A stretch of 64,000 nucleotides of DNA from contig CAZNDZ010000003.1 in assembly GCA_964572155.1 (NCBI GenBank), forward strand, positions 266,224-330,223, given 5' to 3'. Shown piece by piece: positions 5,712 through 37,027 of the stretch. Below the pieces are notes generated by a model. It did not search any database. It had not been told where the DNA came from and was given only the letters and a program-made list of their open reading frames with translations. Source of the stretch: an uncultured Planctomycetales bacterium. Lineage in GTDB: Bacteria; Omnitrophota; Gorgyraeia; Zapsychrales; Fredricksoniimonadaceae. The position numbers and the translations under genes are program-made. Every line of letters begins with the position of its first letter. Positions within the stretch are counted from its first letter, which is position 1.

Positions 5712-5722
5712 AAATAATTAAT

Positions 5723-7792: not shown

Positions 7793-7809
7793 ACCGCTCT
7801 CCTTTAGCC

Positions 7810-8553
7810 TTAATACCGTAAATGGTCATCAAAATTCGATCCATGAACTGCCGTGTGACATCCGCCACTAAAACAACTCCCTTGAGCCAAACGACTTGCA
7901 TGATTTGACTTACCAATCGTTGGATATAGAATTTGTGTATGGCACCTTAAACACAAGTTTGAATCCTTTGCGATGAGCATCTTATCGTTAACGGAACCAT
8001 GCACCTTGTGGCATGTTGTACAACCATCACGCGCAGCTTCATGCTCCCAGACAAAAGGACCTTCTTGCTCTTTATGGCATTTAAAACACGCTTGATTGAC
8101 ATCATTAAATGACGTTGCACTCCAAGGCTTGGCTTCTTCACCATGAGCACTATGACAATCAGTACATGTCATTTTTCCTTCTAATACAGGATGGCGATAT
8201 GGTAATTTGAATTCGGCTTTCTTCTCGGTATGGCATGTGAAACAAACATCCGGATTCTTTTTGGGATTGATGATGTTATCCTTACCACCAGACGCATCGG
8301 CATGTATGCTACCTGGCCCATGGCACATTTCACAACCCTGTGCGGTTCCTTCATTCTTATCATTTGAAATACGTGAGTGCGTCGACAAAGTAAATTGTTT
8401 GAATTCTTTATCGTGACACGTTGCACATGTTTCTGTGCCAACATATGTCGCCGTCTTATACAACTCTCGTGCTTTATCATCTAACGCATAGGCTGGTTTA
8501 CAAAAAACCAGAAATAAACTTAAAACAATAAATAATAAATGTTTTATCTTCAT
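7810..8553 (-). CDS. periplasmic octaheme c-type cytochrome (MtrA/MtoA/OmaB-like partner of the beta-barrel)
   Basis: 247 aa. Signal peptide. Seven CXXCH motifs (CATCH, CEMCH, CFTCH, CTDCH, CFKCH, CTTCH, CLRCH) plus a C-terminal CFSGGCH (CX4CH). About 30 aa per heme. Confidence 0.8.
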   Translation of the reverse strand: MKIKHLLFIVLSLFLVFCKPAYALDDKARELYKTATYVGTETCATCHDKEFKQFTLSTHSRISNDKNEGTAQGCEMCHGPGSIHADASGGKDNIINPKKNPDVCFTCHTEKKAEFKLPYRHPVLEGKMTCTDCHSAHGEEAKPWSATSFNDVNQACFKCHKEQEGPFVWEHEAARDGCTTCHKVHGSVNDKMLIAKDSNLCLRCHTQILYPTIGKSNHASRLAQGSCFSGGCHTAVHGSNFDDHLRY

Positions 8554-10393: not shown

Positions 10394-11038
10394 CTAGATA
10401 ATCCCCTTGGCAATGGCATATTTGACCAAAGCTGCGGTAGTTTTAAGGCCAAGCTTATGGATAAGATGACTACGATGCGTCTCGACGGTGCGGATGCTAA
10501 TTTTGAGTTTTGTAGCAATGTTTTTATTGGCATGACCTTGAGCAATCAATTTTAGAATCTCTTTTTCACGCGAGGTTAATATTTCTAATGATGGGCTGTC
10601 GCCTTCTCTCACAGAACTTAAATATTGATTGGTAATGATCTCTGAAATGGCTGATGAAACATAGGACTTACCTTTCATGACCATCTTTATCGCAATGACC
10701 AAGGAATCAAACGCTCTATCCTTAAGGATGTAGCCTTTCGCCCCATTGGCCATGGCGCGTTTAAAATGTTCTTCATCTTTTTGCATGGTTAAAACAAGGC
10801 ACTTTGTTTTAGGAAATTCCTTTTGTATCTCTTTTAAGGTGGCCAAGCCGTCTAAGTTTGGCATGGAAAGATCCATGACCACACAATCAACCGTAACTTT
10901 TCTTAACTTCTCCAATAACTTCTCTCCATCTTCAGCTTGGGCCACAACTTTAAAGTCAGGCTCTTTCTCTAATAAACCCTTTAAACCTGAACGAAACATT
11001 TCATGATCATCAGCTAAAATAACGCGGATTGTTTTCAT
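10394..11038 (-). CDS. NarL/FixJ-family response regulator (REC + LuxR-type HTH)
   Basis: 214 aa. N-terminal receiver with DDH..D..MP motifs. C-terminal LuxR HTH (LTSREKEIL...IA..L.IS..TV..H). Confidence 0.9.
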   Translation of the reverse strand: MKTIRVILADDHEMFRSGLKGLLEKEPDFKVVAQAEDGEKLLEKLRKVTVDCVVMDLSMPNLDGLATLKEIQKEFPKTKCLVLTMQKDEEHFKRAMANGAKGYILKDRAFDSLVIAIKMVMKGKSYVSSAISEIITNQYLSSVREGDSPSLEILTSREKEILKLIAQGHANKNIATKLKISIRTVETHRSHLIHKLGLKTTAALVKYAIAKGII

Positions 11039-12155: not shown

Positions 12156-12824
12156 TTACTTTTCAAATTCTTGTCTAACTTTAAGGATTTCCTGATTGGT
12201 GTACTGCTCTTCTCTTAGTAAATCCACGGTAAGTATTTGTGGGGAGGGAATAAACGGTTGGATCACATAATGAGCCGCATGCTCTAGCCGTTGTTGTATG
12301 GCTTTAAGATCATCTGACAAACACAAAGACTTTACCAACGTTGTGCGAAATTGATGGGGCAATCCACTATGAATGATCAAATCTATGCTTTGCTCTATTT
12401 TTTTTATTTCAACCGATATGCCAGCAGCTTCATGATACCTAGACATAGAAGTTTTTATATCCATCGCTATATAATCGATAAGCTTTAAATCAATGAGCGG
12501 TGCTAAAACTTCAGGATTACTCCCATTCGTATCTAACTTAACAGCAAACCCAATATGTTTTAGTTTGACGATGAAATCAACTAAGTCTTTTTGCAGGGTT
12601 GGCTCTCCGCCACTAATCACTATCCCTTGCAGTTGATGACGACGTCGTTCAAAATAATTTAGAACTTCTTGTGGGGATAACGAGGTTTGAAATTGCTCGG
12701 GTAAAACCAAATGCGGATTATGGCAAAAGCCACAGCGAAAGTTGCACCCTTGGGTGAAAACAATCGCTGCGACTTTTCCAGGAAAATCGACCAACGTTAA
12801 GCGTTGAACACCGCCTATACGCAT
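12156..12824 (-). CDS. nrdG: anaerobic ribonucleoside-triphosphate reductase activating protein (radical SAM)
   Basis: 222 aa. CNFRCGFCHN radical-SAM cysteine cluster. Immediately downstream of and overlapping nrdD. Confidence 0.85.
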   Translation of the reverse strand: MRIGGVQRLTLVDFPGKVAAIVFTQGCNFRCGFCHNPHLVLPEQFQTSLSPQEVLNYFERRRHQLQGIVISGGEPTLQKDLVDFIVKLKHIGFAVKLDTNGSNPEVLAPLIDLKLIDYIAMDIKTSMSRYHEAAGISVEIKKIEQSIDLIIHSGLPHQFRTTLVKSLCLSDDLKAIQQRLEHAAHYVIQPFIPSPQILTVDLLREEQYTNQEILKVRQEFEK

Positions 12825-14917
12825 AACTGATACGTTTTTCTATCGATGAATTCTTCTTTTTTACCCTTATTCCACTGTTTGACCGGCCGCAAGTATCCAA
12901 CTACCCGAGAATATACTTCACATTCGCAATCACATCGTGTGCATTTTGGATGCTCCCCTGCTAAATATCCACAACTAGGACAAACACTAAACGTCGGGGT
13001 AATTGTAAAATATGGCAACCGATATTGCGTGCAAATGGTACGAATCAATTGTTTTAATCCTTCGGCATTATCAATGCGTTCCCCAATAAAACCATGTAGC
13101 ACTGTGCCTCCGGTATACAATGTCTGCAAATCATCTTGATGGTCCAACGCCTCAAAGATATCTGCCGTATGCTGCACCGGCAAATGTGTTGAATTAGAAT
13201 AAAACGGCTCATGCCCATGTTGATAATCAGCTTCATTGGCGCAAATGATGTCCGCGAACTTGGCTTTATCTAATTTAGCTAAACTATACGACGTGCCTTC
13301 CGCTGGCGTTGCTTCCAGATTGAAAATATTGCCGGTTTCTGTTTGGTATTGCATCAGGGCTGCACGGATATACTCCAGAACCCTAATCGCAAAGGCCTTA
13401 CCTTTTTCTGAGGCAATATCTTCACCCAACAAATTAAGACACGCTTCATTCATCCCCAACACGCCAATGGTTGAGAAATGATTTTTCCAATATTGATTAA
13501 AACGTTCCTTAATATGCCGTAGATAGAATTTAATATAAGGATAAAGATTATCGTCGGTAAGCTTTTCTAAAATCTTACGTTTGATTTCTAAACTTTCTTT
13601 GGCCAAATCCATGATTTGTTGCAATTGCAAAAGAAATTCTGACTCACTGGATGTTGTGTATGCTATGCGAGGCAAGTTGATGGTCACAACACCGATTGAT
13701 CCCGTCAAGGGTGAGGCGCCAAATAAGCCCCCGCCTCGACTTCTTAACTCGCGATTATCAAGACGTAAGCGACAGCACATGCTGCGCGCGTCTTCCGGAT
13801 TCATGTCTGAATTGATAAAATTTGAAAAATACGGAATGCCATATTTTGCTGTCATCTTCCACAACAGCTCTAAATTTGGATTTTCCCAATTAAAATCTTT
13901 GGTCATGTTATACGTCGGTATTGGAAACGTGAATACGCGCCCCTTCGCATCCCCAGCTAACATCACTTCAAGGAAAGCCTTATTAAACATATCCAATTCT
14001 GTTGTAAACTCACCATATGTTTCTTTTTGAACAACCCCGCCGATGATCACCCCTTGATCTTTATAGTAACTTGGCACTGTTAAATCCATGGTGATATTGG
14101 TAAATGGTGTTTGAAAACCAACACGGGTTGGCACGTTGACATTAAAGATAAACTCTTGTAGGGCTTGCTTAACCTCGTCGTAAGTTAACTTATCATAACG
14201 GATAAACGGGGCTAACAAGGTATCAAAATTCGAGAATGCTTGAGCTCCAGCTGCCTCTCCTTGCAGCGTATAAAAGAAATTAACAATTTGCCCTAAGGCG
14301 CTGCGAAAATGCTTGGGCGGCTTACTCTCCATTTTTCCTGTCACACCTTTAAATCCCACCGTCAGTAAATCTTGCAAGTCCCAACCAACACAATACACAC
14401 TTAACAATCCCAAATCATGGATATGAAAATCCCCGCGTTGATGCGCTTCCTTGATCACCGTTGGATAAATGCGATTAAGCCAATAAACTTTGCTGACCTC
14501 TGACGACAGATAATGATTCAACCCTTGCAAGGAATAAGCCATATTGCTATTCTCATTTACCCGCCAATCATGTTGATCTAAATATTTATCAACCAAATCG
14601 GTGTTGAATTGAGACGCAATCTCGCGAATTTCTGCGTGTTGTTGACGGTAAATGATGTAGGCTTTGGCGGTTTTACGGTATGGTGATGAGAGTAAGACAT
14701 CTTCGACGATATCTTGTATGGCTTCAACGGTTGGGCTATCTGCATAAATCTGTTGGGCAATATTCACGACACGCATGGTTAACTTCTGCGCCATATCCAT
14801 CTCAAACTCGCCGGTGACTTGACCTGCTTTGGCGATCGCCGTTGTTATCTTGTGAGGATCAAAATCTTCTGCCCTGCCATTGCGTTTGACAATCTTCGTG
14901 AATAAAGCACTTGCCAT
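12815..14917 (-). CDS. nrdD: anaerobic ribonucleoside-triphosphate reductase (class III RNR)
   Basis: 700 aa. N-terminal ATP-cone (VIKRNG..E.F...KI). C-terminal Zn-ribbon CPSCG...CTRCDC and glycyl-radical RVVGYL motif. Confidence 0.9.
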   Translation of the reverse strand: MASALFTKIVKRNGRAEDFDPHKITTAIAKAGQVTGEFEMDMAQKLTMRVVNIAQQIYADSPTVEAIQDIVEDVLLSSPYRKTAKAYIIYRQQHAEIREIASQFNTDLVDKYLDQHDWRVNENSNMAYSLQGLNHYLSSEVSKVYWLNRIYPTVIKEAHQRGDFHIHDLGLLSVYCVGWDLQDLLTVGFKGVTGKMESKPPKHFRSALGQIVNFFYTLQGEAAGAQAFSNFDTLLAPFIRYDKLTYDEVKQALQEFIFNVNVPTRVGFQTPFTNITMDLTVPSYYKDQGVIIGGVVQKETYGEFTTELDMFNKAFLEVMLAGDAKGRVFTFPIPTYNMTKDFNWENPNLELLWKMTAKYGIPYFSNFINSDMNPEDARSMCCRLRLDNRELRSRGGGLFGASPLTGSIGVVTINLPRIAYTTSSESEFLLQLQQIMDLAKESLEIKRKILEKLTDDNLYPYIKFYLRHIKERFNQYWKNHFSTIGVLGMNEACLNLLGEDIASEKGKAFAIRVLEYIRAALMQYQTETGNIFNLEATPAEGTSYSLAKLDKAKFADIICANEADYQHGHEPFYSNSTHLPVQHTADIFEALDHQDDLQTLYTGGTVLHGFIGERIDNAEGLKQLIRTICTQYRLPYFTITPTFSVCPSCGYLAGEHPKCTRCDCECEVYSRVVGYLRPVKQWNKGKKEEFIDRKTYQLCV

Positions 14918-15006
14918 AGTACCCTCCTCATTTGATGTACACCATATATGGTATAAATAAATAATGAAGTACTATGACTAATTTCTAATTAGAAATAAAT
15001 GCGTAT

Positions 15007-16575
15007 TTATACTGATCTGGTTTTTTGATTAATCATCCCAACGGTAAAGACAAGGAAAAGCAGCTCAACAATGGCATAAATAATGAGTGTTGTGGCAACA
15101 CCCGAGGTAAATCCGTATGAATGCAGACCAACGCTTAAAAGATTAACTCCAAACCATGCCCACATGACAATGAGTAAGCCAATCACACAACCAACAGCAA
15201 CGCCTAGCGCATCAATCATTTTTGCCACACGCGCATGCAAAATGATGGCAATCCACAGCACAATCATTAAGGCCCCATTTTCTTTAGGATCCCATCCCCA
15301 AAAACGACCCCAGCTTTGATCCGCCCAAACACCGCCGAGATTTGTTCCTAAGAATGTTAACGTCAATGAGAATCCCAAGATGCCCATGGTTGTCTTATAG
15401 GTTTTATCCAACATGGCTTGAGGTTTCCCAAGTGCCGCTTGAATTAACCACACATGCCCCAACACACCGGCGACACATGTTGCGCCATAGCCCATGGTGA
15501 TGGTGGTCACATGCGTTGCCAGCCAAAAATTAGAATCCAAGACAGCAACCATCATGGTTAAGGTGTCCCCGTCAGCACTATAGCGATTGGCAATAAACAA
15601 CATGACGGCACCACAAATCGCCGCTGTAATAACCCCAAGCCATTGGCGATTATTACGCTCGATAAATAATCCTAAGATCACCCCCATTAACCCTACAAAA
15701 ACAAATGTTTCATATAAATTTGTTACAGGTGGACGATCCATAATAATCGTGCGTGCAATCAAACCTAACGCATGAGGGATAAATCCACAGATGACAGCCC
15801 CTAGCCCTAAAACATACCCCAGCTTCTTTGAAGAAGCCAACGAGGCAACAAATAATAGAAACGCCAAAATATAAAAAACAATGGCCCACGTAAATGGGCT
15901 GCTTTTGTGATACAACAATTCTAATGGGAACTTACGGACATTGGCCTGCTCTGATTTTGAAAGCTTACCCCCCACGACGTTGATATACCCCACAACTGCC
16001 GCATCAAAATCTGCCTGATTTCCAAGACGGTAACTTGCTGACATTGCACGCCAATAAGCTGTCATTTCCTCGGTCTGGTCGACGACCAAATGCATATTCG
16101 CATAAGAACGCGACAGATCGGCATAGATATTGATGTTGTCAAAAATACGCAGGATTTCTCGCTCTACTAATGAACGTTCTTTCTCTGAGATATTTCTAGC
16201 TTGCGATTGAAGCTCAGCGAGTTTTCTATAAGAACCTTTTAACTGCGCAGGTGTATAACGCCGATGTGAATCTACGGGAATCTCTAACGCTGCTGCGATG
16301 TCAGGATTATTAATTAAGAACACACGATCACTCATGGTTTTCTCTTCGAGAAATAAAACATCCGCCAACCAGGCAATGCCTTCTTCTTTTTGATAATGAT
16401 CTTTTCCAGAGAACTGTGTTAATACACTGCGGGCAAATGTATCAAGCGGCTTAACGCGGCCATTTTCGATCACAGGGATGTGTTTAAACTGCGTCAAATC
16501 CTTAACCCCTGAGGCAAAAGCACTGTGCGCTCCACAAATAAACAATATGCTTAAGAAAAATATTTTAATTTGCAT
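15007..16575 (-). CDS. ccsA: cytochrome c biogenesis protein CcsA/ResC (system II heme lyase subunit)
   Basis: W-rich WGxxWGWDPKENG (WWD) heme-handling motif and multiple TM helices. The likely start is the ATG at 16573-16575 (MQIKIFF...), which overlaps the ccsB TGA by 1 nt and suggests translational coupling. The track ORF extends to 16644. Confidence 0.85.
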   Translation of the reverse strand: MQIKIFFLSILFICGAHSAFASGVKDLTQFKHIPVIENGRVKPLDTFARSVLTQFSGKDHYQKEEGIAWLADVLFLEEKTMSDRVFLINNPDIAAALEIPVDSHRRYTPAQLKGSYRKLAELQSQARNISEKERSLVEREILRIFDNINIYADLSRSYANMHLVVDQTEEMTAYWRAMSASYRLGNQADFDAAVVGYINVVGGKLSKSEQANVRKFPLELLYHKSSPFTWAIVFYILAFLLFVASLASSKKLGYVLGLGAVICGFIPHALGLIARTIIMDRPPVTNLYETFVFVGLMGVILGLFIERNNRQWLGVITAAICGAVMLFIANRYSADGDTLTMMVAVLDSNFWLATHVTTITMGYGATCVAGVLGHVWLIQAALGKPQAMLDKTYKTTMGILGFSLTLTFLGTNLGGVWADQSWGRFWGWDPKENGALMIVLWIAIILHARVAKMIDALGVAVGCVIGLLIVMWAWFGVNLLSVGLHSYGFTSGVATTLIIYAIVELLFLVFTVGMINQKTRSV

Positions 16576-17576
16576 CAATGTTCTTTCGTCCGAAATGCAT
16601 GTATTAAATAGTGCAAGGCCAATCCAAAAAAGACAACCAAACATGCCACATATGGCAAGACTCTGGCAAAATTCTTAACCACAGCCAGCGTCGAATATTG
16701 TCGACCAAACTGGTCTTTGTCATATGAAGCCTGATAAATTGTATAGTCCTTATACTTTAATGGATTATTCATAAAGATCTTTGCCTGCCTCTTTAAAGAA
16801 CCGGTATCAATCATCACATGGCTTTCATAATTCTTAGCCATGCTAGTCCCTGGGAGAAATTCGGCTTTAAAACTATCGAGCGTGATCTTAAATGGCAGAG
16901 GAAATACTTTATGACGCAAGATGAAATAATACCTTTGTCCGTCGATCAAAGCTGTTGCAGGCTGTTCAATTTGACCATCTAACATAAACTCGAGTGGCTT
17001 ATCATTGACCCAAAGCTCAAAAACACCGCTGGCATTATTCTCAACGTTGTTTAAATGAAACTCTTTCACCACAAGGCGGGCATTCTTATTTACGAATGGC
17101 AATGTTGTATTTGATTTGAAGTGTTCTACATCTAAGGCCGTGATGGCACGATCTTGTTGCTCTCCAGTCCAATACGCCAGTTCCCATGCTTGATATGAAA
17201 CCGATACATTGGTTGATTGCCCCTCGGCTAAATGTATGGCAGATTCTTCTGAGACATGAAAAACCATAAAAGCGGCCACAAAATAAAATAACAACCCGAC
17301 ATGGGTGATTAATAAACCCGCATTCACCCACTGACTATATCTCTTTAATGAAAGCAGCGTCATGGCAAGCAAGTTGACAAACAAAACCCATAACACTGAT
17401 TGAGCACCTGGGAATGGGAGAAATCCGCCGGCCAAAAAGAAGAAGGAATTAAAGAAACGTTCCTGTGACGCATACAAACCTTGTTGCACTTGAGCGATCG
17501 TGCCCCAAAATGTCAAGATCAGCAACAACGTCAAACATGTCACCGTGATCACAGAAGAACTTAAACGTTTTAACAT
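16575..17576 (-). CDS. ccsB: cytochrome c biogenesis protein CcsB/ResB (short form)
   Basis: 333 aa. N-terminal TM helices, periplasmic domain, and C-terminal ResB-family block NNPLKYKDYTIYQASYD. Confidence 0.8.
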   Translation of the reverse strand: MLKRLSSSVITVTCLTLLLILTFWGTIAQVQQGLYASQERFFNSFFFLAGGFLPFPGAQSVLWVLFVNLLAMTLLSLKRYSQWVNAGLLITHVGLLFYFVAAFMVFHVSEESAIHLAEGQSTNVSVSYQAWELAYWTGEQQDRAITALDVEHFKSNTTLPFVNKNARLVVKEFHLNNVENNASGVFELWVNDKPLEFMLDGQIEQPATALIDGQRYYFILRHKVFPLPFKITLDSFKAEFLPGTSMAKNYESHVMIDTGSLKRQAKIFMNNPLKYKDYTIYQASYDKDQFGRQYSTLAVVKNFARVLPYVACLVVFFGLALHYLIHAFRTKEH

Positions 17577-20846: not shown

Positions 20847-21257
20847 TTATTTAGCAAATGACTGATTGATCAAACTAACCAAATCTAGGTCATTTACAGG
20901 TTTTGAAAAAAATCCAACAGCCCCAATCTTTAACGCCTTATCTTTTAACCCGCCATTTTTCTCTGCGGAGATAATGATGACAGGTCGTTTTGAGCCGGAT
21001 GCTGTAAGACGTTGTAACGTTGACCATCCATCCAAACCAGGCATATGGATGTCTAAAATCAAACAACCTTCTGTGCTGTTTGAAACTTCCTTGAAAAATT
21101 CTTCAGCGCTATTAAATGTGATGACATCAAACGTGTAACTGAGTAAAAGCATTTTAAGAGCGCGACAAACGGATGGGTCGTCATCTACGATAAAAATTTG
21201 TTTCTTTCCTAATGACATGATGTCTAGCTCCTTGATCTCATTTAAAATTGCTTGCAT
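20847..21257 (-). CDS. stand-alone response-regulator receiver protein
   Basis: 136 aa REC domain only (DDD..., K near the C-terminus). Confidence 0.8.
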   Translation of the reverse strand: MQAILNEIKELDIMSLGKKQIFIVDDDPSVCRALKMLLLSYTFDVITFNSAEEFFKEVSNSTEGCLILDIHMPGLDGWSTLQRLTASGSKRPVIIISAEKNGGLKDKALKIGAVGFFSKPVNDLDLVSLINQSFAK

Positions 21258-21288
21258 AAAAGCATTCTAAAGTAATATCAGAAGGACG

Positions 21289-21310
21289 CTATTGTACTGA
21301 GGTATAACAG
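21289..21310 (-). promoter_or_regulatory. conserved intergenic motif copy 1 (coding-strand TTATACCTCAGTACAATAG) upstream of stand-alone REC gene
   Basis: Consensus TATACCYCAGTACAATWG shared with sites at 26319-26343 and 30626-30651. Lies in the 63-nt gap between the FixJ-like RR stop and the REC start. Confidence 0.45.
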
Positions 21311-21320
21311 AGGTATTTAC

Positions 21321-21938
21321 TTAAACGACTACGCCTGCAGTTTTTGCAAAATCAATGAGTTCTGTGACGGTCTTTGCTTGCATTTTTTGCATGACACGTC
21401 CACGATGAACCTTGATGGTTTGTAATGCGGTTCCCCTTTTTGAGGCGATTTGTTTATTCATCAGGCCTTGAGCAACAAAATGAAAAACCTCTAACTCTTT
21501 TGGAGACAATGTTTTAATGCGACGTTTAATCTTTTCAACAGCCACATTATTCTTGTTTTGAATCTTAATCTTGGAAAGGGCAATGGTGATGGCGTTAAGC
21601 AATTCTTTATCTGTGAATGGTTTTGCCAAAAAGTCGATCGCTCCTGCCTTCATGGCCTTAACGCTCATATGAATATTCCCGTACCCTGTGATAAAAACGA
21701 TCGGCGTGATAATCCCTTGTTTTGCCATAATATCCTGCAGGGCAAAACCATTGATGGTAGGTAACAAAACATCTAAGACTAAACATGATGCTACTTTCGG
21801 ATATTTAAACGCTAAGAAATCTTTGGCTTCGGTAAATGTTTCTACGCGAAATCCATGGGATTTCAACAGCAGTGACAATGACTTACAAATAGATGTGTCA
21901 TCATCAACGACATATATCATTGATCCGCTATTGGTCAT
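21321..21938 (-). CDS. FixJ/NarL-family response regulator (REC + LuxR HTH)
   Basis: 205 aa. Receiver domain plus C-terminal LSPKELEV...A.G..NK.IA LuxR-type HTH. Confidence 0.9.
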   Translation of the reverse strand: MTNSGSMIYVVDDDTSICKSLSLLLKSHGFRVETFTEAKDFLAFKYPKVASCLVLDVLLPTINGFALQDIMAKQGIITPIVFITGYGNIHMSVKAMKAGAIDFLAKPFTDKELLNAITIALSKIKIQNKNNVAVEKIKRRIKTLSPKELEVFHFVAQGLMNKQIASKRGTALQTIKVHRGRVMQKMQAKTVTELIDFAKTAGVVV

Positions 21939-23008
21939 ATGCCCTCTTTGCCATTAATGGGTATGGAAAAACTAAACGTTACCCCTCGGTCTGGATTATT
22001 GGTCACGTTCATGTGCCCACCATGTCCCTCAACAATGGAGCGACTTATCGAGAGCCCCATGCCTAGTCCGTCGGGTTTGCTGGTAAAGAAATTCATAAAA
22101 AGCTTCTTCATATTTTCCTCTGGTATCCCACAACCAGCATCTTTGACATCAACTAAGATCATATCTTTGTCTTTGATAGATGTACGAATCACCATGTCAC
22201 GCGCCTCTTTACTGCCCTCCATGGCATCAAAACTATTGCTAATCAAATTCAATAACACCTGCTGCAGTTGAATGCGGTCTCCGTAAATTAACGGCAAAGT
22301 ATTATCTAATTCAAGTTTCAGCGTATTGTTGCGCACCGTAACATCTGTTGTAATCAAAATGGCTGTCTCTTTAATGAGCGCATTCATGTCCAAATGCTTC
22401 ATCTCAGGTTCGATCTTCTTTAATAATGCACGTAGACGCCGAATAACTTCTGCTGCGCGCTGGTCATCATTGATGATGTATTGAAAAATTTCATTTAATT
22501 GCGGGTCTTTATCTGGGAACATGCGTTGCGCAGCTTGTGCATACGCCAGAATGGCTGTTAATGGTTGACTAATCTCATGGGCAAGCGAAGAAACAAACTC
22601 AGCAAGTTTTCCGACGCGCGTCACATGCAACAATTCTTCCCGCTGTTCTTTAATCTCTAAATCGCGCTGACGCATTAATGTAATGTCAGTTTGTATGCCC
22701 ATAAAATGGGTGACAAGACCCTTTGTATCCCGCACTGGGGCAATGCGCAACAAATTCCAATATTTCATCCCATCTTTTTGGAAATTAAGCATCTCGCCAT
22801 GAAAGGGTTTGCCTTGCGTGATGGTATCTTTGATCTCAGCGACAACTCGCTGGTCCGCACCATCCCCATACAATAGAAAATAATTACGACCTAAAATCTC
22901 ATGCTTTACATAACCACTCATGGTCTGAAAAGCTTGATTAACGTAGGTCACAGGAAAATCAGGTTTTAATGCGTCAATGATGAAAATGCCGTCGGCGGTT
23001 GCTTCCAT
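21935..23008 (-). CDS. PAS-domain sensor histidine kinase (FixL-like architecture, HisKA + HATPase_c)
   Basis: 357 aa. Cytoplasmic PAS (LOV-like but lacks Cys/His ligands), H-box SLAHEISQPL, N/G boxes. Overlaps the RR gene by 4 nt. Confidence 0.85.
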   Translation of the reverse strand: MEATADGIFIIDALKPDFPVTYVNQAFQTMSGYVKHEILGRNYFLLYGDGADQRVVAEIKDTITQGKPFHGEMLNFQKDGMKYWNLLRIAPVRDTKGLVTHFMGIQTDITLMRQRDLEIKEQREELLHVTRVGKLAEFVSSLAHEISQPLTAILAYAQAAQRMFPDKDPQLNEIFQYIINDDQRAAEVIRRLRALLKKIEPEMKHLDMNALIKETAILITTDVTVRNNTLKLELDNTLPLIYGDRIQLQQVLLNLISNSFDAMEGSKEARDMVIRTSIKDKDMILVDVKDAGCGIPEENMKKLFMNFFTSKPDGLGMGLSISRSIVEGHGGHMNVTNNPDRGVTFSFSIPINGKEGI

Positions 23009-23232
23009 GGCCTTGGCTCGGATATGTAACTGCGCTTCCTGCAGTTTAACTTTTTTACCTAAGTTACTTCGGGTCTTAAAAATAAGCTTCCTTAAAAAGG
23101 ACTACTGTTGATTCCTGCTTGAATAGTACTCTTGTGAGCGATTTCAGTCAACTGATTGTATTCATTGAGGTATTCTAAGATAAATCAACAAAGACACAAT
23201 TATACCTAGGTACAATCTAATGTAATGTTGTA

Positions 23233-26033: not shown

Positions 26034-26234
26034 CTATTCAACAGTGCGACGGATTGATGATGCCACATCACGACCTGCGGCTTTTACATCATCACCAACA
26101 TTCTGGACACTGGTTTTTAAATCACTGCTTGAATTGCGAAACATTGGCCGTCCACCAGACACAGCCCAAACCAATAAAACAACCACCAACAATATAAAAA
26201 CACTCATTGGCACAACTCCAAAGTTTTTATTCAT
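26034..26234 (-). CDS. small single-pass membrane protein (stress-protein-like)
   Basis: The likely start is ATG at 26232-26234 (MNKNFGVVPMSVFILLVVVLLVW...), preceded by a perfect AAGGAG SD. The track ORF uses an upstream TTG. One TM helix then a charged Gly/Asp/Lys-rich tail. Confidence 0.4.
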   Translation of the reverse strand: MNKNFGVVPMSVFILLVVVLLVWAVSGGRPMFRNSSSDLKTSVQNVGDDVKAAGRDVASSIRRTVE

Positions 26235-26318
26235 TTTGCTCTCCTTTGACAAATCTGACGTGCATCAGACATGCGTGTTAACGACATAGAGGCATTCTAT
26301 TGATTATGGGATTTGAAT

Positions 26319-26343
26319 CAATTGTACTGGGGTATAACAACAG
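26319..26343 (-). promoter_or_regulatory. conserved intergenic motif copy 2 (coding-strand TTATACCCCAGTACAATTG)
   Basis: 18/19 identical to copy 1. About 85 nt upstream of the small membrane protein gene (26034-26234) and 7 nt after the dbpA stop. Confidence 0.45.
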
Positions 26344-26349
26344 CGGGGC

Positions 26350-27735
26350 TTATGCAGCTTTTCCGACTTTAAACTTTTTGCCTTTGATTTTGCTCTTGCC
26401 TAAATGTTCAATGGCATGATCTCTTTTATCGTTGCTGATTGCAACATAACTATTCACTTCAAGGATATGTATCTTGCCAATCTCATCTACTTTAAGGCCT
26501 GCATCTTTGGTCAACGCACCAACAATATCTCCCGGACGTAAATTATCTTTTCTACCGCCACTTAAGTATATCGTCGACATGAATGGGCGCATGACAACGG
26601 GTTTTAGTTTGTCTAATGCATTTAATTCCATCACCGGGCATTCACACTTTAAATATTCCGCAATGGTTCTTAAAATATGACGTTCTTTATGAGTAAACAG
26701 GCTTAAGGCCAACCCTTCTTGACCGGCGCGACCCGTACGTCCAATTCGATGCACATAGAGCTCATGGTCTGAGGGTAAATCATAGTTGATGATGACGCTC
26801 ACATCTTTGACATCAAGCCCACGCGATGCCAAATCTGTGGCAACGAGGATGCGGCAGCTTTTATTATCAAACTTAATTAAAATCATGGTGCGATCTGGCT
26901 GTTCCAAATCTGAATGGATTTGCAGAGAATCAATTTTCTTGGTGCGCAACAATCCCGCCACTTTATTGCAACCTTCACGGCTATTACAAAAAATAATGCA
27001 AGAATCTGGACGATAATGACTCAACAGGCGCAACAAGGCTTCATTTTTATCTTCTTCCACTTTGAAAAACAACTGCTTGATCGTGGTTGTTTGATGTTGC
27101 GAATCAATGGTGACTTGAGCCGCGTCTTCTTGCAAGCTAGCACTTAATGTCTTAATGCCATTTGGAAACGTCGCCGAGAATAACATGGTTTGACGGTCAA
27201 CAGGTGTAAATGAGGCAATGTGATTGATTTCTTTAATCGTGCCCATCTCAAGCAAACGATCCGCTTCATCTAACACCAACACTTTAAGCTCCACACAATT
27301 TAAGATTCCCGTTTCAAGTAATTTGGTGATGCGCCCAGGGGTGCCAACCACAACATGCGCCCCTTGTTTTAAGGATTTTACTTTGTGATGTTCATCCGCC
27401 CCGCCTGAAATGGTTAAAACTTTGATATTACTTGCAAAACGCGCAAGGCGTCTGATCTCATTGGCCACTTGTTCGGCTAATTCTCTCGTCGGAACCAAAA
27501 CCAATGCTTGAGGCATCTGGCTTTTTAAATCAAGCTTGGTTAATATCCCCAAAGCAAAAGCCGCTGTCTTACCACTGCCGGTATTCGCCTGCCCAATAAA
27601 ATCACGCTTGCTTAAAATAAATGGCAGACCTTTTTCCTGAATCGGCGTCATGGTTAAATAACCCAATGACTTTAAATTATCTAAAATGGGTTGGCTTAAA
27701 CCAACACTCTTAAAATCTTTGGATGCGTCAACCAC
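26350..27735 (-). CDS. dbpA: DEAD-box ATP-dependent RNA helicase with C-terminal RNA-binding (DbpA-type) domain
   Basis: 461 aa. Q-motif, Walker A AQTGSGKT, DEAD, SAT, HRIGRTGRAG, plus a C-terminal about 70-aa DbpA-like RBD. Confidence 0.8.
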   Translation of the reverse strand: MVDASKDFKSVGLSQPILDNLKSLGYLTMTPIQEKGLPFILSKRDFIGQANTGSGKTAAFALGILTKLDLKSQMPQALVLVPTRELAEQVANEIRRLARFASNIKVLTISGGADEHHKVKSLKQGAHVVVGTPGRITKLLETGILNCVELKVLVLDEADRLLEMGTIKEINHIASFTPVDRQTMLFSATFPNGIKTLSASLQEDAAQVTIDSQHQTTTIKQLFFKVEEDKNEALLRLLSHYRPDSCIIFCNSREGCNKVAGLLRTKKIDSLQIHSDLEQPDRTMILIKFDNKSCRILVATDLASRGLDVKDVSVIINYDLPSDHELYVHRIGRTGRAGQEGLALSLFTHKERHILRTIAEYLKCECPVMELNALDKLKPVVMRPFMSTIYLSGGRKDNLRPGDIVGALTKDAGLKVDEIGKIHILEVNSYVAISNDKRDHAIEHLGKSKIKGKKFKVGKAA

Positions 27736-28981
27736 GGAATCCCTCTTTCTTTGCAGCGGCGCGGGCTTTATCTTTTTTGCTCATGCGCTTGCCTTTAATA
27801 GGTGCGCCGCCAGCCATAGCTGGTAATGGGGCACCGGTTAATTCAAAACCTTTGATCGATGTGCGGGGCAATCTCAGACGTACCCTTTTTTCTATCAAGG
27901 AAAAATGGGCCTGATCTTCATGCCCAATCAATGTGACTGCTGTACCTGTTTGTCCTGCGCGCGCCGTGCGACCAATGCGGTGAATATAATCTTCTGGAGA
28001 ACGTGGCAAATCATAGTTGACCACGACGGGCAAATTGTGAATATCAATCCCCCGTGCGGCTAGGTCTGTTGCAACCAAAACCTTAAACTTCTTGGCTTTA
28101 AAATCACCTAAGATAGCGGTGCGCTGGGCTTGGGTTAAGCCACCATGAAAAGCATTGGCCTCAATATTGGCTTTCAATAATTTAGCGGCCAAAATATCGG
28201 CATCACGCACACTGGCTACAAACACTAAAACTTGCGCCCATTGTTGCGTTTGAATCAAATGACGCAATAACGGCCCGCGATTATTCCGATTAACTTCTAT
28301 CACTTGCTGATCAACATGCTCAACGGTCTGTGTGTCTGCTTCCACTTTTAAAGATACAGCATTAGGCATAAATACGGATGCTAAATCTTTAAGATTTCCA
28401 TCAACCGTTGCTGAAAACAATAAATTTTGTCGTTTCGCTGGCAACAAATTAAGCACAGCTTGTAATTCTTTGGCAAAACCCAGATCAAACATCTTGTCTG
28501 CTTCGTCGATGACCAGAAATTTTAAATTTGTAAAGTCCACCTTCTGCTTGATGACCACATCTAATAATCGCCCAGGGGTGGCCACGACAATGTCTGTACC
28601 ATGGATTAAAGTGCGCATTTGCACGTCAATATTAAGCCCCCCAACTAATAATACTCGACGCAACGGCTTGGTCAAATTGCGACCATAAATCTTTATCTGC
28701 CCATTGACCTGCACCGCAATTTCACGTGTTGGGGCCAAGATCAAGGCTTTGATGGTTTGGCGTTCTTCTTTGGGACCATCTTGCAGTAATTGTAAAATAG
28801 GTAAGGTGAAACTTGCGGTCTTGCCCGTCCCCGTCTTTGCTTGGGCAATGATGTCATTGCCTTTTAGGATCAACGGGATGGATTGAATTTGTATCGGGGT
28901 TGGTTGGTCATAACCAGCATTGCGAACCGCTTCGATAAGATCTTTGGAAAGGCCAAGTGAGGCAAAAGACGCATCGGACAT
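27728..28981 (-). CDS. rhlE: DEAD-box ATP-dependent RNA helicase (RhlE-like) with basic C-terminal tail
   Basis: 417 aa. AKTGTGKT, DEAD, SAT, HRIGRTARAG. Lys/Arg-rich tail. Confidence 0.85.
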   Translation of the reverse strand: MSDASFASLGLSKDLIEAVRNAGYDQPTPIQIQSIPLILKGNDIIAQAKTGTGKTASFTLPILQLLQDGPKEERQTIKALILAPTREIAVQVNGQIKIYGRNLTKPLRRVLLVGGLNIDVQMRTLIHGTDIVVATPGRLLDVVIKQKVDFTNLKFLVIDEADKMFDLGFAKELQAVLNLLPAKRQNLLFSATVDGNLKDLASVFMPNAVSLKVEADTQTVEHVDQQVIEVNRNNRGPLLRHLIQTQQWAQVLVFVASVRDADILAAKLLKANIEANAFHGGLTQAQRTAILGDFKAKKFKVLVATDLAARGIDIHNLPVVVNYDLPRSPEDYIHRIGRTARAGQTGTAVTLIGHEDQAHFSLIEKRVRLRLPRTSIKGFELTGAPLPAMAGGAPIKGKRMSKKDKARAAAKKEGFRG

Positions 28982-30028: not shown

Positions 30029-30092
30029 AATATTTTCCTTAAACTTTCAAATACATCCTCCCTAAGACATCGCAGCCTTAGGGAGGTAAAAC

Positions 30093-30329
30093 TTAATTCT
30101 TAGATTTACCTAAGATTAAACCTAACAAAAGACCACCGACAGCAACACCAGCGACCAATGGCCACGGATTTTCGCGTGTTTTCTTGTCCATATCGGTTGC
30201 CCATCGTGTTACTTGCTCTTGGCCTTGCTTCATTTTGTCTTCGGCTTGAGACAATGCATCTTTGATCCGATCCTCGCCTTGATTAAAAGCGGATTGGGTA
30301 TAATTTTTATTCTTGTCTTGATCGTTCAT
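30093..30329 (-). CDS. DUF883 family ribosome/membrane-associated stress protein (ElaB/YqjD-like)
   Basis: 78 aa. Charged helical N-terminal region and C-terminal TM anchor WPLVAGVAVGGLLLGLILG typical of ElaB/YqjD/YgaM. Confidence 0.7.
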   Translation of the reverse strand: MNDQDKNKNYTQSAFNQGEDRIKDALSQAEDKMKQGQEQVTRWATDMDKKTRENPWPLVAGVAVGGLLLGLILGKSKN

Positions 30330-30541
30330 AGTGATCTCCCTGTTGAATTTGCGTTAACGTCTGCTTTTGCCATATGTTCTGGCTCTGCTTTAGTTTTATC
30401 TGGATTATTGCCGCTTTGTTTATTCTTTGATTCTTCTTTCAAGCCATACTGAGGGGCTTGCCAAGGTTTATCTTCAAACGAAGGCTTGTTGGACTGAATT
30501 GGTTTATTCTCTTGCTTCTTGATTATTGTTGGTTCTTCCAT
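30326..30541 (-). CDS. hypothetical small Lys/Glu-rich protein, first gene of ElaB module
   Basis: 71 aa. SD AAAGGAG upstream. 4-nt overlap with the DUF883 gene. Confidence 0.35.
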   Translation of the reverse strand: MEEPTIIKKQENKPIQSNKPSFEDKPWQAPQYGLKEESKNKQSGNNPDKTKAEPEHMAKADVNANSTGRSL

Positions 30542-30625
30542 GATGTTTCTCCTTTTTGAAACTGTTAATAAAATCTTGGATATAAACCCTAGATAAGAGA
30601 ACTATAAGGCGTGTCACATCATGAG

Positions 30626-30651
30626 GCAATTGTACTGAGGTATACGTCGAG
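30626..30651 (-). promoter_or_regulatory. conserved intergenic motif copy 3 (coding-strand GTATACCTCAGTACAATTG)
   Basis: About 85 nt upstream of the first gene of the ElaB/YqjE module and 8 nt after the U32 peptidase stop. Confidence 0.45.
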
Positions 30652-33596: not shown

Positions 33597-33797
33597 CTAC
33601 GTATTTGGATCACCTTCATTAATTAACCTAGAAATATCTGCTGCTTCATCCTTAGTTATAGGAGCTATCTTGGTTACACTCTTTGATTCAACGATTGCTT
33701 TGCGAATAGAGTAAGACTTTTGCTTATAATGAAACGGTGCAGACGCGCTGCCTTTTGCTTTAATTTGGTCAGCAATGCTTTTGAGATGATGTGACAT
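33597..33797 (-). CDS. hypothetical small protein
   Basis: 66-aa ORF with no motif recognised. Weak support. Confidence 0.25.
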   Translation of the reverse strand: MSHHLKSIADQIKAKGSASAPFHYKQKSYSIRKAIVESKSVTKIAPITKDEAADISRLINEGDPNT

Positions 33798-33880
33798 AGT
33801 TTTTCTTCTCCTTTAATACAAACGATCTGTTAACGTTTATATTAAAATCACCGGAAAGAAAAATCTATGCTACTAAGGTA

Positions 33881-34252
33881 TTACTCGACGGATTCGACTG
33901 TTTGCAAATCACCCAATGGATTTCGTTTCTGATCCATGCGTTTTTGCTTATATTTATGGGAAAGGTCTAATCCCAGCTTGAAGACTTTTAAGATAGTTGT
34001 CTTTAAAGAATCTTTGGTTGCCATGCATTTTTCCTCAATGACGATGTCATCGAAATGAGCAATTTTTAGATCTAACGTGACACTGGCCATATCAGACTTT
34101 TGATGATGTTTGCTTAATTTCTCGAGGGTCACATGACACTTTGTTAATTCTGGATTCATCGTCAGGACTTTTTCAAATTTCTCTTTAATAAGTGCATCAA
34201 TCTCTGAACTGTTATCTAAATCATGGTAGGTAATTTGAAGTGGATTTTGCAT
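33881..34252 (-). CDS. hpf: ribosome hibernation promoting factor / RaiA-YfiA family (short form)
   Basis: 123 aa. N-terminal (I)xxxHxDL..S.AI...I..K..KL and C-terminal charged tail characteristic of the sigma-54-modulation/HPF family. Sigma70-like -10 TATAAT upstream. Confidence 0.55.
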   Translation of the reverse strand: MQNPLQITYHDLDNSSEIDALIKEKFEKVLTMNPELTKCHVTLEKLSKHHQKSDMASVTLDLKIAHFDDIVIEEKCMATKDSLKTTILKVFKLGLDLSHKYKQKRMDQKRNPLGDLQTVESVE

Positions 34253-34747: not shown

Positions 34748-37027
34748 CTACACTTTCACAGAATACTGCTTAATTTTCTCTTTTAACTTTTTGATATCAA
34801 TGGGCTTTGGTAAATAATCATTCATGCCCGCATCAAAACACTTCTTCTGATCTTCTGCCATGACGTTCGCCGTAAGCGCAATGATAGGTATATCTTTATT
34901 AATATCAGCACGTATGATCTTCGTTGCTTCAATGCCACCCATCACGGGCATTTGCACATCCATCAGGCATAAATCATAAACATTACTCTTAACTTTATCA
35001 ATGGCCTCTTGGCCATTGCTGGCATAATCACCAACGCAACCCATAATATTAAAGAAAGCTTTCATCAAATCTTGATTTGCTTTCACATCTTCAACCAAAA
35101 GCACTTTAACACCTTTAACACTAAATTCTTCTGCCATGTGCCGATTAACAATTGGCCCCTGAGTGCGCTGATCCCCAAACACCGTCGCGATGACTTTCGC
35201 TAATTCATCCCTAGTGATTGGCTTTGGCAAGAAACCATTAAACCCGCTTTGCTTCAATTTGTCCATGATCCCCATACGAATATCCGACGAAACAGCTACT
35301 ATCTTTATGGCGTCATACTGTTGATTCTTGCGAATAAGTTGCGCTAAATCATAACCATCCATTTGTGGCATCATGATGTCAGACAGAATAACCTCTGGCA
35401 TTTGTCCACCTTCAGCAAGCTTCTTAAGTGTTTGTAATGCTTCTTGAGGGTTTGATAAAACAGCGACCACGTTCATTTCCAAAGCTTTGCAATATCGTTT
35501 TAAGAGCTCATTGGCATGGGCATTATCGTCAATGATCATCACGCGTTTTTGCTTTAAAGCACTTAAACTTAACGGATTAATTTGTTGCTCTTCTAATGCT
35601 TGCCCTTTCTTAAACTTCAGATTAAAAACAAAGTCACTGCCCTTGCCTTCCACTGAATCAACCCACATATTGCCACCCATCAACCCAACTAAATTCTTAC
35701 TAATCGTCAACCCCAAGCCCGTACCCCCAAACTTTCGTGTCGTTGAATCATCTGCTTGACTAAACGCTTGAAATAATTTGGTAATCCCTTCTGGTGATAT
35801 ACCAATCCCTGTGTCACGCACAATAAAATGAAGCATGGGCTCTTCTGGGGTACTCTTTTCAATGTCTTGACGGATGATGATGCCAATCTCACCTTGCTCT
35901 GTGAATTTAATGGCATTGCCCAACAAATTGATTAAGATCTGTCGCATGCGGGTTGGATCGCCAATTAGAAATACAGGGATGCGTGGATCAAGATCGATGA
36001 ACGTATGAATTTTCTTATCAACCAACCTTGAGGAAATCATCTTAAAAACATCTGAAACTAAATATTCCAAATTAAAATTCACCGCTTCTAACTTAACTTT
36101 ACCTGCTTCTAACTTAGAGAAATCAAGGATGTCATTGATAATGCTAATTAATAGATCGCCGCTGGACTTAATGGTCTTAATATATTCCTGTTGTTTCTCA
36201 TCAAGTTTTGTCTGAGATAACAAATCTGTAAACCCCAAAATGGCATTCATCGGCGTGCGAATCTCATGGCTCATGTTCGCTAAGAAATTTTCTTTGGCTT
36301 TTGATGCTACCATGACTTCTTGATTAGCTTTCATCAAATCCTCTTGTGTCTTCAACATTGTCATGGCAAGTTTTCGACCATAAACAGCGACGGCAATGAC
36401 GATAAATATAACCGCGATGACGATAAAGTATTCATAATAAACTAAATTCTTCGATAACTGCTCTTGTTGAGCTAAGTGATAACTTTGTATGCGTCGGATC
36501 TGACTATTTAAACTTGCAATCTTTTCATTTAGATTAGCAAACTTACGATCCATGGTTGCCATGCGCTCACCAGCGCTTTCTGGCTTTTGATCTCTAAAAA
36601 ATGTAAAAATCTGATCAGCCTCATCGGTCATGCCCTTCATGGCCAAATTGACTTCATTAAGTTGTGCTAGGATTGGGGCCGCTTCGGTTGGATTAACACT
36701 GGTTCGAATTTCATGTGTTAATTGTTCTAAATTCGCATAAAAATTACTTTTTGCCAGCTCCATGCGCAATAATTCTGCAGATGCATCCTTAGAATCAAAA
36801 ACATCATTACCTGGCGCATTTACTTTCCCAGCAAGCACCGATAATCTGGCAAACTTATCAAGCCTTATCATCCATTCTTGATTAACTTGTACAGAACGCG
36901 TGAAATTCTCAACAATGGCATGGTTTAGATATAGGCTTAAGAGGATGGTGACAACATCAAATGCCGCTAACGCAAAATATACAAGATACCACTGCGGTTT
37001 TTTCTTCATAACTTGACTTTGATTCAT
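34748..37027 (-). CDS. hybrid sensor histidine kinase with periplasmic sensor domain and two C-terminal receiver domains
   Basis: 759 aa. Two TM helices flank an about 160-aa periplasmic domain. HisKA H-box SHEIRTPMN, HATPase_c (DTGIGI, GGTGLGL). Two REC domains. Confidence 0.85.
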   Translation of the reverse strand: MNQSQVMKKKPQWYLVYFALAAFDVVTILLSLYLNHAIVENFTRSVQVNQEWMIRLDKFARLSVLAGKVNAPGNDVFDSKDASAELLRMELAKSNFYANLEQLTHEIRTSVNPTEAAPILAQLNEVNLAMKGMTDEADQIFTFFRDQKPESAGERMATMDRKFANLNEKIASLNSQIRRIQSYHLAQQEQLSKNLVYYEYFIVIAVIFIVIAVAVYGRKLAMTMLKTQEDLMKANQEVMVASKAKENFLANMSHEIRTPMNAILGFTDLLSQTKLDEKQQEYIKTIKSSGDLLISIINDILDFSKLEAGKVKLEAVNFNLEYLVSDVFKMISSRLVDKKIHTFIDLDPRIPVFLIGDPTRMRQILINLLGNAIKFTEQGEIGIIIRQDIEKSTPEEPMLHFIVRDTGIGISPEGITKLFQAFSQADDSTTRKFGGTGLGLTISKNLVGLMGGNMWVDSVEGKGSDFVFNLKFKKGQALEEQQINPLSLSALKQKRVMIIDDNAHANELLKRYCKALEMNVVAVLSNPQEALQTLKKLAEGGQMPEVILSDIMMPQMDGYDLAQLIRKNQQYDAIKIVAVSSDIRMGIMDKLKQSGFNGFLPKPITRDELAKVIATVFGDQRTQGPIVNRHMAEEFSVKGVKVLLVEDVKANQDLMKAFFNIMGCVGDYASNGQEAIDKVKSNVYDLCLMDVQMPVMGGIEATKIIRADINKDIPIIALTANVMAEDQKKCFDAGMNDYLPKPIDIKKLKEKIKQYSVKV

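Follow-up and report, generated by a model that had tools for sequence, protein, structure and literature searches.

What is the role of a short sequence that recurs, letter for letter, in three gaps between genes of an uncultured bacterium, and which protein would read it? The window discussed here, by which we mean the whole 64,000-nt stretch of contig CAZNDZ010000003.1 (assembly GCA_964572155.1, positions 266,224 to 330,223), comes from a bacterium labeled as an uncultured Planctomycetales and placed by GTDB in the Omnitrophota. It carries the 18-mer TATACCYCAGTACAATWG at 21289-21306, 26319-26336, and 30627-30644, in each case on the minus strand, and a first-pass annotation made from the letters alone had proposed that these copies mark a shared regulon. 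Our reading, to which we assign a probability of roughly 0.75, is that the motif would be the core of an 18-bp inverted-repeat binding site for the adjacent FixJ/StyR-type response regulator, set in complete housekeeping-type promoters and used for class II-type activation.

The box and its promoters

The three copies are exact, and TATACCYCAGTACAATWG has no further match in the window at up to three mismatches; the chance expectation is 0.14, and none of 100 shuffles gave three matches. All three lie within short intergenic gaps that separate minus-strand genes: site 1 between the genes for a REC-LuxR response regulator and a stand-alone receiver, site 2 between those for a DbpA-type helicase and a 66-aa membrane protein, and site 3 between those for a U32 peptidase and two small proteins. 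The functional unit is an 18-bp inverted repeat, here called the box, which lies 2 nt upstream of the motif as originally delimited (Table 1). It reads ATTATACC-NN-RGTACAAT, with the consensus (A/G)TTATACC-NN-(G/A)GTACAAT, i.e., an 8-2-8 palindrome of the half-site ATTrTACC. A fourth copy, ATTGTACCTAGGTATAAT, which had gone unnoticed, lies upstream of the kinase/regulator operon and has the A/G difference between its half-sites swapped; it was found, together with many diverged copies, by a mismatch-tolerant search of the motif loci and the window. A position weight matrix (PWM) derived from unrelated loci picks out exactly four window sites, at 21.5 to 34.4 bits, against a maximum of 13.3 bits in 20 shuffled windows.

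Downstream of each window copy, at a fixed distance, stands the hexamer TAGAAT (three boxes) or TATAGT (one box); for the three exact copies this is 19 to 20 nt downstream of the motif. A generic promoter scan independently calls TTGATT-16-TAGAAT at site 2 and TTGCCT-17-TATAGT at site 3. The wider anatomy can be read from a profile built on 133 unique promoters, taken from the set of loci seeded with the regulator that is described below. In this profile the box, (A/G)TTATACC-YN-GGTACAAT, runs into a -35 element, TTGAtt, whose first T is also the last T of the box, and a spacer of 16 or 17 nt with a T-tract is followed by a C at -13, a -10 element TAnAAT, an A at -6, and an A at +1. TTGA occupies the -35 position in about 90-97 % of the sites.

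At 26 of 132 sites an open reading frame (ORF) starts exactly 5-6 nt past the downstream hexamer, which makes it leaderless, and at none does one start 2-4 or 7-11 nt past it. Fifteen leaderless receiver orthologues share a conserved N-terminal extension, M-K-x-E-K-L...KKQIFIVDDD. Because of these leaderless ORF positions and the conserved extension, we take the downstream hexamer as the -10 element and place the start 7 nt past it. Counted from the start site inferred in this way, the box spans about -51 to -34, and its center falls at -42.5 with a 16-nt spacer or at -43.5 with a 17-nt spacer. The predicted geometry is that of class II-type activation, in which a dimer site centered at about -41.5 to -42.5 abuts or overlaps the -35 element.

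The two half-sites are not quite alike. They differ at -48 versus -37 (loci L046-L125), the distal one being ATTATACC (A, 93 %) and the proximal one, on the opposite strand, ATTGTACC (G, 78 %); contacts with sigma region 4 or a graded affinity may lie behind the difference. Autoregulatory sites upstream of operons tend to symmetry (GGTATAAT), and variants with swapped or doubled half-sites occur among the sites, window box 4 being one. The palindromy and these variants together point to a dimer-type symmetry of the box. The spacer between -35 and -10 is itself conserved in many of the metagenome-assembled genome (MAG) promoters of loci L003-L045 (attcattttagNccatccc), beyond the needs of a plain spacer; in the broader promoter set only its T-tract and the C at -13 persist.

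This anatomy bears on several statements of the first-pass annotation. Its observation of near-identical copies at three minus-strand intergenic sites is borne out, as is its view of them as a shared regulatory signal, neither a repeat element nor a terminator. Its statement that the flanks are not conserved holds upstream and fails downstream, where the -10 hexamer recurs at its fixed distance. The placement 7 to 11 nt past the preceding stop codon proves incidental: the gap between stop codon and palindrome is 12-16 nt in the window, with a median of 35 nt and a range of -11 to 109 nt in 67 related sites. TATACC and TACAAT, once likened to a sigmaS-type -10, both lie at about -49 to -34, and the real -10, TAnAAT, lies 19 to 20 nt downstream of the motif. 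Nor does the suggested likeness to the NarL heptamer survive. NarL sites are TACYYMT heptamers, typically inverted as 7-2-7, with TAC at the outer ends; in the profile ATTrTACC-NN-GGTAyAAT the TAC stands at the inner ends, and the matched Y and C positions fall in the variable center.

Table 1. Boxes, predicted promoter elements, and associated genes in the window
Feature	Position	Strand	Basis or remarks
Box 1, GTTATACCTCAGTACAAT	21291..21308	-	18-bp inverted repeat; 12 nt past regulator stop; PWM 22.7 bits
Box 1, -35 equivalent TAGCGT	21286-21291	-	poor
Promoter 1, -10 TAGAAT	21264..21269	-	fixed spacing and leaderless statistics; predicted start, A of ATG at 21257 (leaderless)
Box 2, GTTATACCCCAGTACAAT	26321..26338	-	PWM 34.4 bits
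Promoter 2	-35 TTGATT 26316-26321; -10 TAGAAT 26294-26299	-	16-nt spacer; predicted start 26287
Box 3, CGTATACCTCAGTACAAT	30629..30646	-	PWM 21.5 bits
Promoter 3	-35 TTGCCT 30624-30629; -10 TATAGT 30601-30606	-	17-nt spacer; predicted start ~30594
Box 4, ATTGTACCTAGGTATAAT	23199..23216	-	PWM 25.3 bits; swapped half-sites
Promoter 4	-35 TTGTGT; -10 TAGAAT 23172-23177	-	16-nt spacer; predicted start ~23165; predicted leader before kinase gene, ~157 nt
Possible weak fifth box, GTAATACCTTAGTAGCAT	33867..33884	-	5 mismatches, below PWM threshold; low confidence
FixJ/StyR-type response regulator (REC + LuxR/GerE helix-turn-helix), proposed box binder	21321..21938	-	Pfam, PDB, NCBIfam, box linkage
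Cytoplasmic histidine kinase, LOV-like PAS + FixL-like HisKA/HATPase core	21935..23008	-	Pfam, PDB, orthologues next to regulator
Stand-alone receiver (single-domain response regulator)	20847..21257	-	Pfam Response_reg; commonest box target
66-aa single-pass membrane protein, box 2 target	26034..26234	-	homologue behind box in a regulator-seeded locus
Box 3 targets, 71-aa hydrophilic protein + 78-aa protein	30093..30541	-	78-aa: ElaB/DUF883-like C-terminal glycine-zipper anchor

Linkage of the box to the regulator gene

Two sets of loci, one seeded with the DNA motif and the other with the regulator protein, connect the box to the regulator gene. An exact scan for the 18-mer across ~186,000 species genomes gave 44 loci, about 34 of which have TAnAAT 19 to 20 nt downstream, very often with an ATG or GTG six nucleotides after it. 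These loci are concentrated, several matches to a MAG, in MAGs whose labels, used here as given, are uncultured Planctomycetales, Candidatus Omnitrophota, Elusimicrobia, and Firestonebacteria. The remaining ten or so look like chance, with no -10, a coding context, and unrelated taxa. Since tens of chance matches are expected, we rejected the raw count as evidence of enrichment; the argument of the scan lies in the promoter architecture and the concentration by lineage.

The motif-seeded loci were picked without any protein information, and six of them (L017, L026, L031, L035, L039, and L044) nevertheless encode regulators orthologous to that of the window (65-75 % identity), each adjoined by an orthologue of the window kinase (62-71 %). 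The usual order at such loci is box, REC, kinase, regulator, box, next gene.

The converse set comprises 80 metagenome loci chosen by alignment to the regulator alone (61-76 % identity to the window regulator). Counting as a box any sequence with at most one mismatch to TTRTACNNNNGTAYAA and a -10 at the right distance, we found 137 boxes in 562 kb, compared to 1 in shuffled sequence, and 127 of the 137 are on the strand of the regulator. Of the 73 loci whose sequence extends far enough, 66 have a box within 150 nt past the regulator stop codon. The gene behind this box varies (a receiver, a lipoprotein, MlaE, DUF1328, and others) while the box stays, and therefore the constant partner of the box is the regulator gene. 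Comparative genomics establishes in this way the architecture of the box, its conservation, and its genomic coupling to the regulator gene.

A box also stands upstream of 13 of 14 REC-histidine kinase-response regulator operons, which indicates that these operons are autoregulated. In the window, the promoter at box 4 would be the autoregulatory promoter of the kinase/regulator operon. The regulator is abundant in metagenomes from anoxic freshwater, peat, and groundwater.

The proteins and the target genes

The window regulator matches Response_reg (2e-23) and GerE (3.2e-16) of Pfam, which places it in the FixJ/NarL family, and its full-length matches in PDB are StyR (1YIO; 1.6e-41) and FixJ (2.6e-37). 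On the NCBIfam equivalog model of FixJ (NF006900) it scores 182.6 bits, under the cut-off of 255, and so it is not FixJ proper; in the databases it is named only "FixJ family two-component response regulator" or "response regulator [Candidatus Omnitrophota bacterium]." Its recognition helix, LQTIKVHRGRVMQKMQAKTVTELI, is invariant in the orthologues (seven regulators), and an invariant helix of this kind would match the invariant DNA site. The first-pass annotation had named the neighboring FixJ/NarL-type regulators as possible binders, and this regulator is now the best candidate. It had also named a "LOV-LuxR" protein (the PAS-LuxR protein discussed below), whose helix-turn-helix (HTH) is 27 % identical and differs in the recognition helix. 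Neither this protein (46782-47597) nor a second regulator (10394-11038), with HTHs 27-29 % identical, has box-linked orthologues in the motif-seeded loci, and both were rejected as binders. A binder of the CRP/FNR type was likewise discarded, with no such gene in the window or near boxes and a different half-site geometry.

The kinase is, from its orthologues' place next to the regulator, the predicted cognate of that protein. Its best PDB match is YF1, an engineered LOV-FixL chimera (1.5e-69), and many LOV domains match too, so that at the level of predicted fold the relation of its sensor to LOV is clear. On the NCBIfam FixL model (NF041777) it scores 203.4 bits versus a cut-off of 850; as the best-fitting model, FixL is practically level with AtoS. 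LOV photoreceptors are recognized by the motif GXNCRFLQ, an adduct-forming cysteine, and conserved flavin-binding residues (PMC4682037). The PAS domain of the window kinase reads GRNYFLLYG, and in place of GXNCRFLQ the pattern that this kinase shares with all its orthologues is G(R/K)(N/D)YF.(L/H)Y; all lack C62 (the adduct cysteine), R63, F64, and Q66 in YtvA numbering, which sets them outside the LOV photoreceptors.

The window kinase (357 aa) also lacks an N-terminal coiled coil of 70-110 residues, with GADREK repeats, that is found in all orthologues. The leader at 23009-23165 (minus strand) reads in frame LQEAQLHIRAKA just before the kinase ATG, comparable to EEQIHIRTKA of the orthologues, which suggests either that the gene was recently truncated at its 5' end or that it uses a non-canonical start codon. 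Most other loci have a receiver gene between box and kinase; the window has none at this position. Two further LOV-like proteins are encoded on the minus strand: the PAS-LuxR one-component regulator mentioned above, of EL222-like architecture, and a short stand-alone PAS protein (44850-45275), both with a proline for the adduct cysteine (GKTPRIFQG and GRSPSFLQG, respectively). The 64 kb of this apparent anaerobe thus hold three cysteine-less LOV-like sensors, the kinase included.

Behind the boxes of the related loci, stand-alone receivers are by far the commonest genes (49, plus 2 full regulators), and orthologues of the window receiver, at 50-64 % identity, follow a box in many loci. Next come a lipoprotein family with no Pfam match (14), STAS-MlaE proteins (7, every one leaderless), Transgly_assoc proteins (YeaQ/GlsB; 6), DUF1328 (5), sugar transferases of PEP-CTERM type (4), and DUF2582 winged-helix proteins, kinases, and a GGDEF protein (3 each). 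Further targets are DUF5670, OmpA, DUF748/AsmA, DUF2934, DUF6515, BON, Fe/Mn superoxide dismutase, and YflT/DUF1269. In the Elusimicrobia-type loci L005, L024, and L034, the box precedes a leaderless bacterial sugar transferase with a PEP-CTERM-like segment, which hints that exopolysaccharide synthesis belongs to the regulon in some lineages.

The target families found behind boxes in many loci agree with the shared regulon of small stress and signaling genes proposed at first pass, and its description of the genes downstream of the three window copies holds in part. The first is a stand-alone REC gene, as the Pfam match confirms; its leaderless ATG at 21257 is in frame, and an alternative start would be an internal Shine-Dalgarno sequence and ATG at 21217. 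Same-strand genes after the receiver include OsmY-like BON proteins (NCBIfam OsmY, 9e-29). The second is indeed a 66-aa membrane protein with a single pass, for which no Pfam family was found. The leaderless ATG predicted for promoter 2 opens an 18-codon upstream ORF, MSLTRMSDARQICQRRAK (26231-26287, minus strand), which ends in a TGA that shares bases with the ATG of the 66-aa gene (ATGA); the overlap could reflect translational coupling or chance. The third, called an ElaB/YqjD-YqjE module, is weakly matched: the 78-aa protein alone matches DUF883_C, at E = 0.04, and the other module genes have no match. A strong 12-bp GC-rich hairpin (30057-30086, minus strand) directly follows the gene for the 78-aa protein and probably ends the promoter 3 transcription unit; the downstream DEAD-box helicase genes are therefore probably outside it.

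These helicase genes, two in tandem (26350-28981, minus strand), one with a DbpA RNA-binding domain, lie between two box-controlled units. DEAD-box helicases often have a link to cold or stress. A gene weakly matching the Ribosomal_S30AE hibernation-factor family (33881-34252) and one for a hybrid kinase with two receiver domains (34748-37027) lie on the same strand, immediately upstream of the box cluster. The stop codon of the hibernation-factor-like gene and the possible fifth box overlap; TAATAT stands 20 nt downstream of this box, and the 66-aa gene that follows (33597-33797) has a homologue in L010 that follows an exact box. Elsewhere on the minus strand there is a multiheme cytochrome c cluster (4197-8553 and 12156-17576), NapC/NirT-like with paired CXXCH, that includes a 689-aa protein of no family. 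Hemerythrin, HemA, NrdD/NrdG, and system II cytochrome c biogenesis (ResB/CcsA) are encoded near it. The cluster and these neighbors together indicate an anaerobic, cytochrome-rich lifestyle, and the gene content with acetate kinase/Pta, NrdD/NrdG, the multiheme cytochromes, and hemerythrin points to an anaerobe.

Mode of control, alternatives, and known relatives

From these sequences we infer binding by the regulator, activation as the direction of control, the signal, and the role of the receivers, in the following scheme. The cytoplasmic kinase would sense a cue through its LOV-like, cysteine-less PAS domain, redox or oxygen being a guess, and phosphorylate the regulator. The regulator would then dimerize, bind the palindrome beside sigma region 4, and activate transcription in a class II-like manner, as do StyR at STY2, FixJ at fixK, and regulators at the LuxR/TraR boxes. 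The outputs would be the regulator's own operon (box 4), at least one stand-alone receiver, and small envelope and stress proteins, often from leaderless mRNAs. The receivers, as the dominant target, would probably act as phosphate sinks or kinase inhibitors and so provide feedback, comparable to FixT on FixL.

Such a regulon has known counterparts. StyR of the StyS/StyR pair in Pseudomonas is the best solved relative of the window regulator, and both are encoded in an operon with a kinase. Phosphorylation drives dimerization of StyR, and the dimer activates PstyA from the inverted repeat STY2 at about -40 (PMC2442086). The pair differs in that its target is a single catabolic operon rather than a dispersed, putative stress regulon, that StyS is a large double kinase, unlike the window kinase, and that stand-alone receivers and leaderless targets are absent. 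The STY2 sequence is also different from that of the window box.

The FixL/FixJ system of Alphaproteobacteria resembles the window pair in that, among NCBIfam models, FixJ fits the regulator best and in that both kinases are PAS kinases. FixJ binds 18-bp imperfect palindromes, where its footprints extend to -31 (PMC4999443), and in Caulobacter the pathway induces the single-domain receiver FixT, which in turn exerts feedback on the FixL kinase (PMC7078487). The published FixJ sites (TAAGTAATTTCCCTTA; GTAGTTTCCC/GTAMGTAG; the FixK2 site) are unrelated in sequence to ATTATACC-NN-GGTACAAT, although their architecture, near -35, is similar. The PAS domain of FixL binds heme, whereas that of the window kinase is LOV-like and matches LOV domains, and FixJ acts mainly through FixK, whereas the window regulator appears to drive many promoters directly.

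LuxR/TraR boxes (lux box, tra box) are inverted repeats of 18-20 bp bound by a dimer with a LuxR-type HTH; centered at about -42.5, they abut or overlap the -35 and serve class II-type activation. LuxR and TraR are ligand-activated one-component regulators, in contrast to the response regulator here, and the box sequences are unrelated.

Several observations weigh against the scheme. The scheme does not account for the conserved A/G asymmetry of the half-sites, and the 44 exact matches are not above a naive uniform-composition expectation, which is in the tens. At kinase-regulator loci that have no leading REC gene, an upstream box is present in only 2 of 26; either autoregulation is not universal or the operon starts of these loci are misassigned. 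Moreover, the core promoter is already good, with TTGA at -35 and a strong -10, so that an activator may be dispensable and repression possible.

This last point leads to the alternative that survives best, in which the same protein would bind the same site with the opposite sign: the regulator, in either phosphorylation state, would repress strong constitutive promoters by abutting the -35, and stress would release them. The core is near consensus (TTGA, a 16-17 nt spacer, TAnAAT, and an A at +1), and a generic scanner calls two window promoters without any activator logic. There is also precedent: in R. palustris, repression of nif promoters by FixJ in its unphosphorylated form has been reported (PMC13327599), and StyR represses from other sites (PMC2442086). 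However, the box lies upstream of the -35 with a 1-nt overlap only and does not cover the -35, the -10, or the start, which is the position of an activator, and window box 1 has a poor -35 yet a conserved target, which fits dependence on an activator. We consider repression unlikely.

It is improbable that a different, unlinked transcription factor binds the box and that the kinase/regulator operon and its neighbors are only members of its regulon. The link to the regulator comes from comparative genomics, many boxes are far from any regulator gene, and the targets include the DUF2582 winged-helix protein and other signaling proteins. The box that follows the great majority of regulator genes despite the varying downstream gene nonetheless speaks for the adjacent regulator, the size and geometry of the palindrome suit a dimer with a LuxR-type HTH, and no other DNA-binding protein recurs near the boxes; the other LuxR-type HTHs of the window share only 27-29 % identity with that of the regulator.

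A recognition element of an alternative sigma factor, with the motif as a sigmaS-like -35 or -10 (TATACC/TACAAT), would explain the fixed orientation, the fixed distance to the downstream hexamer, and the asymmetric half-sites. We give it very little credence: the element is palindromic, and copies with swapped half-sites look functional; a separate housekeeping-type -35 (TTGAtt) and -10 (TAnAAT) stand at canonical spacing; and no sigma factor gene is found in the window or linked to boxes. The motif as first delimited falls within -51 to -32 of the predicted start, and its TATACC and TACAAT, at about -49 and -39, are too far from the start defined by leaderless genes. The palindromic symmetry and the downstream -10 led us to discard elements of the sigma32, sigma54, and extracytoplasmic function types. 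A remnant of a repeat or mobile element, or an RNA-level signal of the upstream genes such as a 3' untranslated region element or a terminator, is scarcely credible even though each window copy lies just past a stop codon, as the upstream flanks are unrelated, the stop-codon distance is variable elsewhere, no GC-rich hairpin with a T-run was called at any of the four boxes, a hairpin of the palindrome would have a loop of only 2 nt, Rfam covariance models gave no match anywhere in the window at gathering thresholds, and nine matches on viral contigs lack the promoter architecture.

With activation by the adjacent regulator as the preferred reading, a broader proposal can be made. The gene content of the regulon overlaps strikingly with the general stress regulons of sigmaS in E. 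coli, sigmaB in Bacillus, and EcfG/PhyR with LovK-LovR/MrrA in Alphaproteobacteria, the shared families being BON/OsmY-like, ElaB/DUF883-like, Transgly_assoc (YeaQ/GlsB), DUF1328 (YtjA), YflT, superoxide dismutase, and small membrane proteins. The sigmaS, sigmaB, and EcfG regulons count several of these families among their hallmark members, and given such targets the idea of a stress regulon is reasonable. LOV-type kinases and single-domain receivers feed the alphaproteobacterial general stress response (PMC5964349). Control here would apparently be exerted by a DNA-binding response regulator at housekeeping-type promoters and not by an alternative sigma factor with partner switching. We tentatively suggest, at somewhat less than even odds, that several uncultivated anaerobic lineages (MAGs labeled Omnitrophota, Planctomycetales, Elusimicrobia, and Firestonebacteria) share a general stress (or oxygen/redox-shock) response with this kinase, regulator, and box as its master switch. 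Built on a FixJ-type regulator at housekeeping promoters, such a switch would correspond in function to sigmaS, sigmaB, and EcfG-PhyR, with sensing by a LOV-derived, cysteine-less PAS domain, buffering by several stand-alone receivers, and many leaderless targets.

A two-component regulon with a class II-like regulator box is a well-known kind of system; this operator, this regulator family, and this regulon appear to be undescribed. Literature searches for the motif strings returned only irrelevant eukaryotic primer matches, and searches on Omnitrophota promoters or stress gave nothing relevant. To our knowledge, essentially no transcriptional regulation has been described for these bacteria, which are known almost only from metagenomes, and the locus offers for them a concrete regulon with a regulator, an operator, a promoter anatomy, and a list of targets. 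Given an operator that is unusually invariant from one lineage to the next and a regulator that abounds in anoxic metagenomes, the box could mark, in those habitats, stress genes of unassigned function, among them the 14-member lipoprotein family, DUF1328, DUF5670, DUF2934, DUF6515, and small membrane proteins. The YF1/FixJ optogenetic parts have close natural relatives in this kinase and regulator, whose operator is different and well defined; this natural pair could serve for orthogonal signaling. If the general stress reading is true, a design based on a two-component system would join the short list of bacterial general stress responses.

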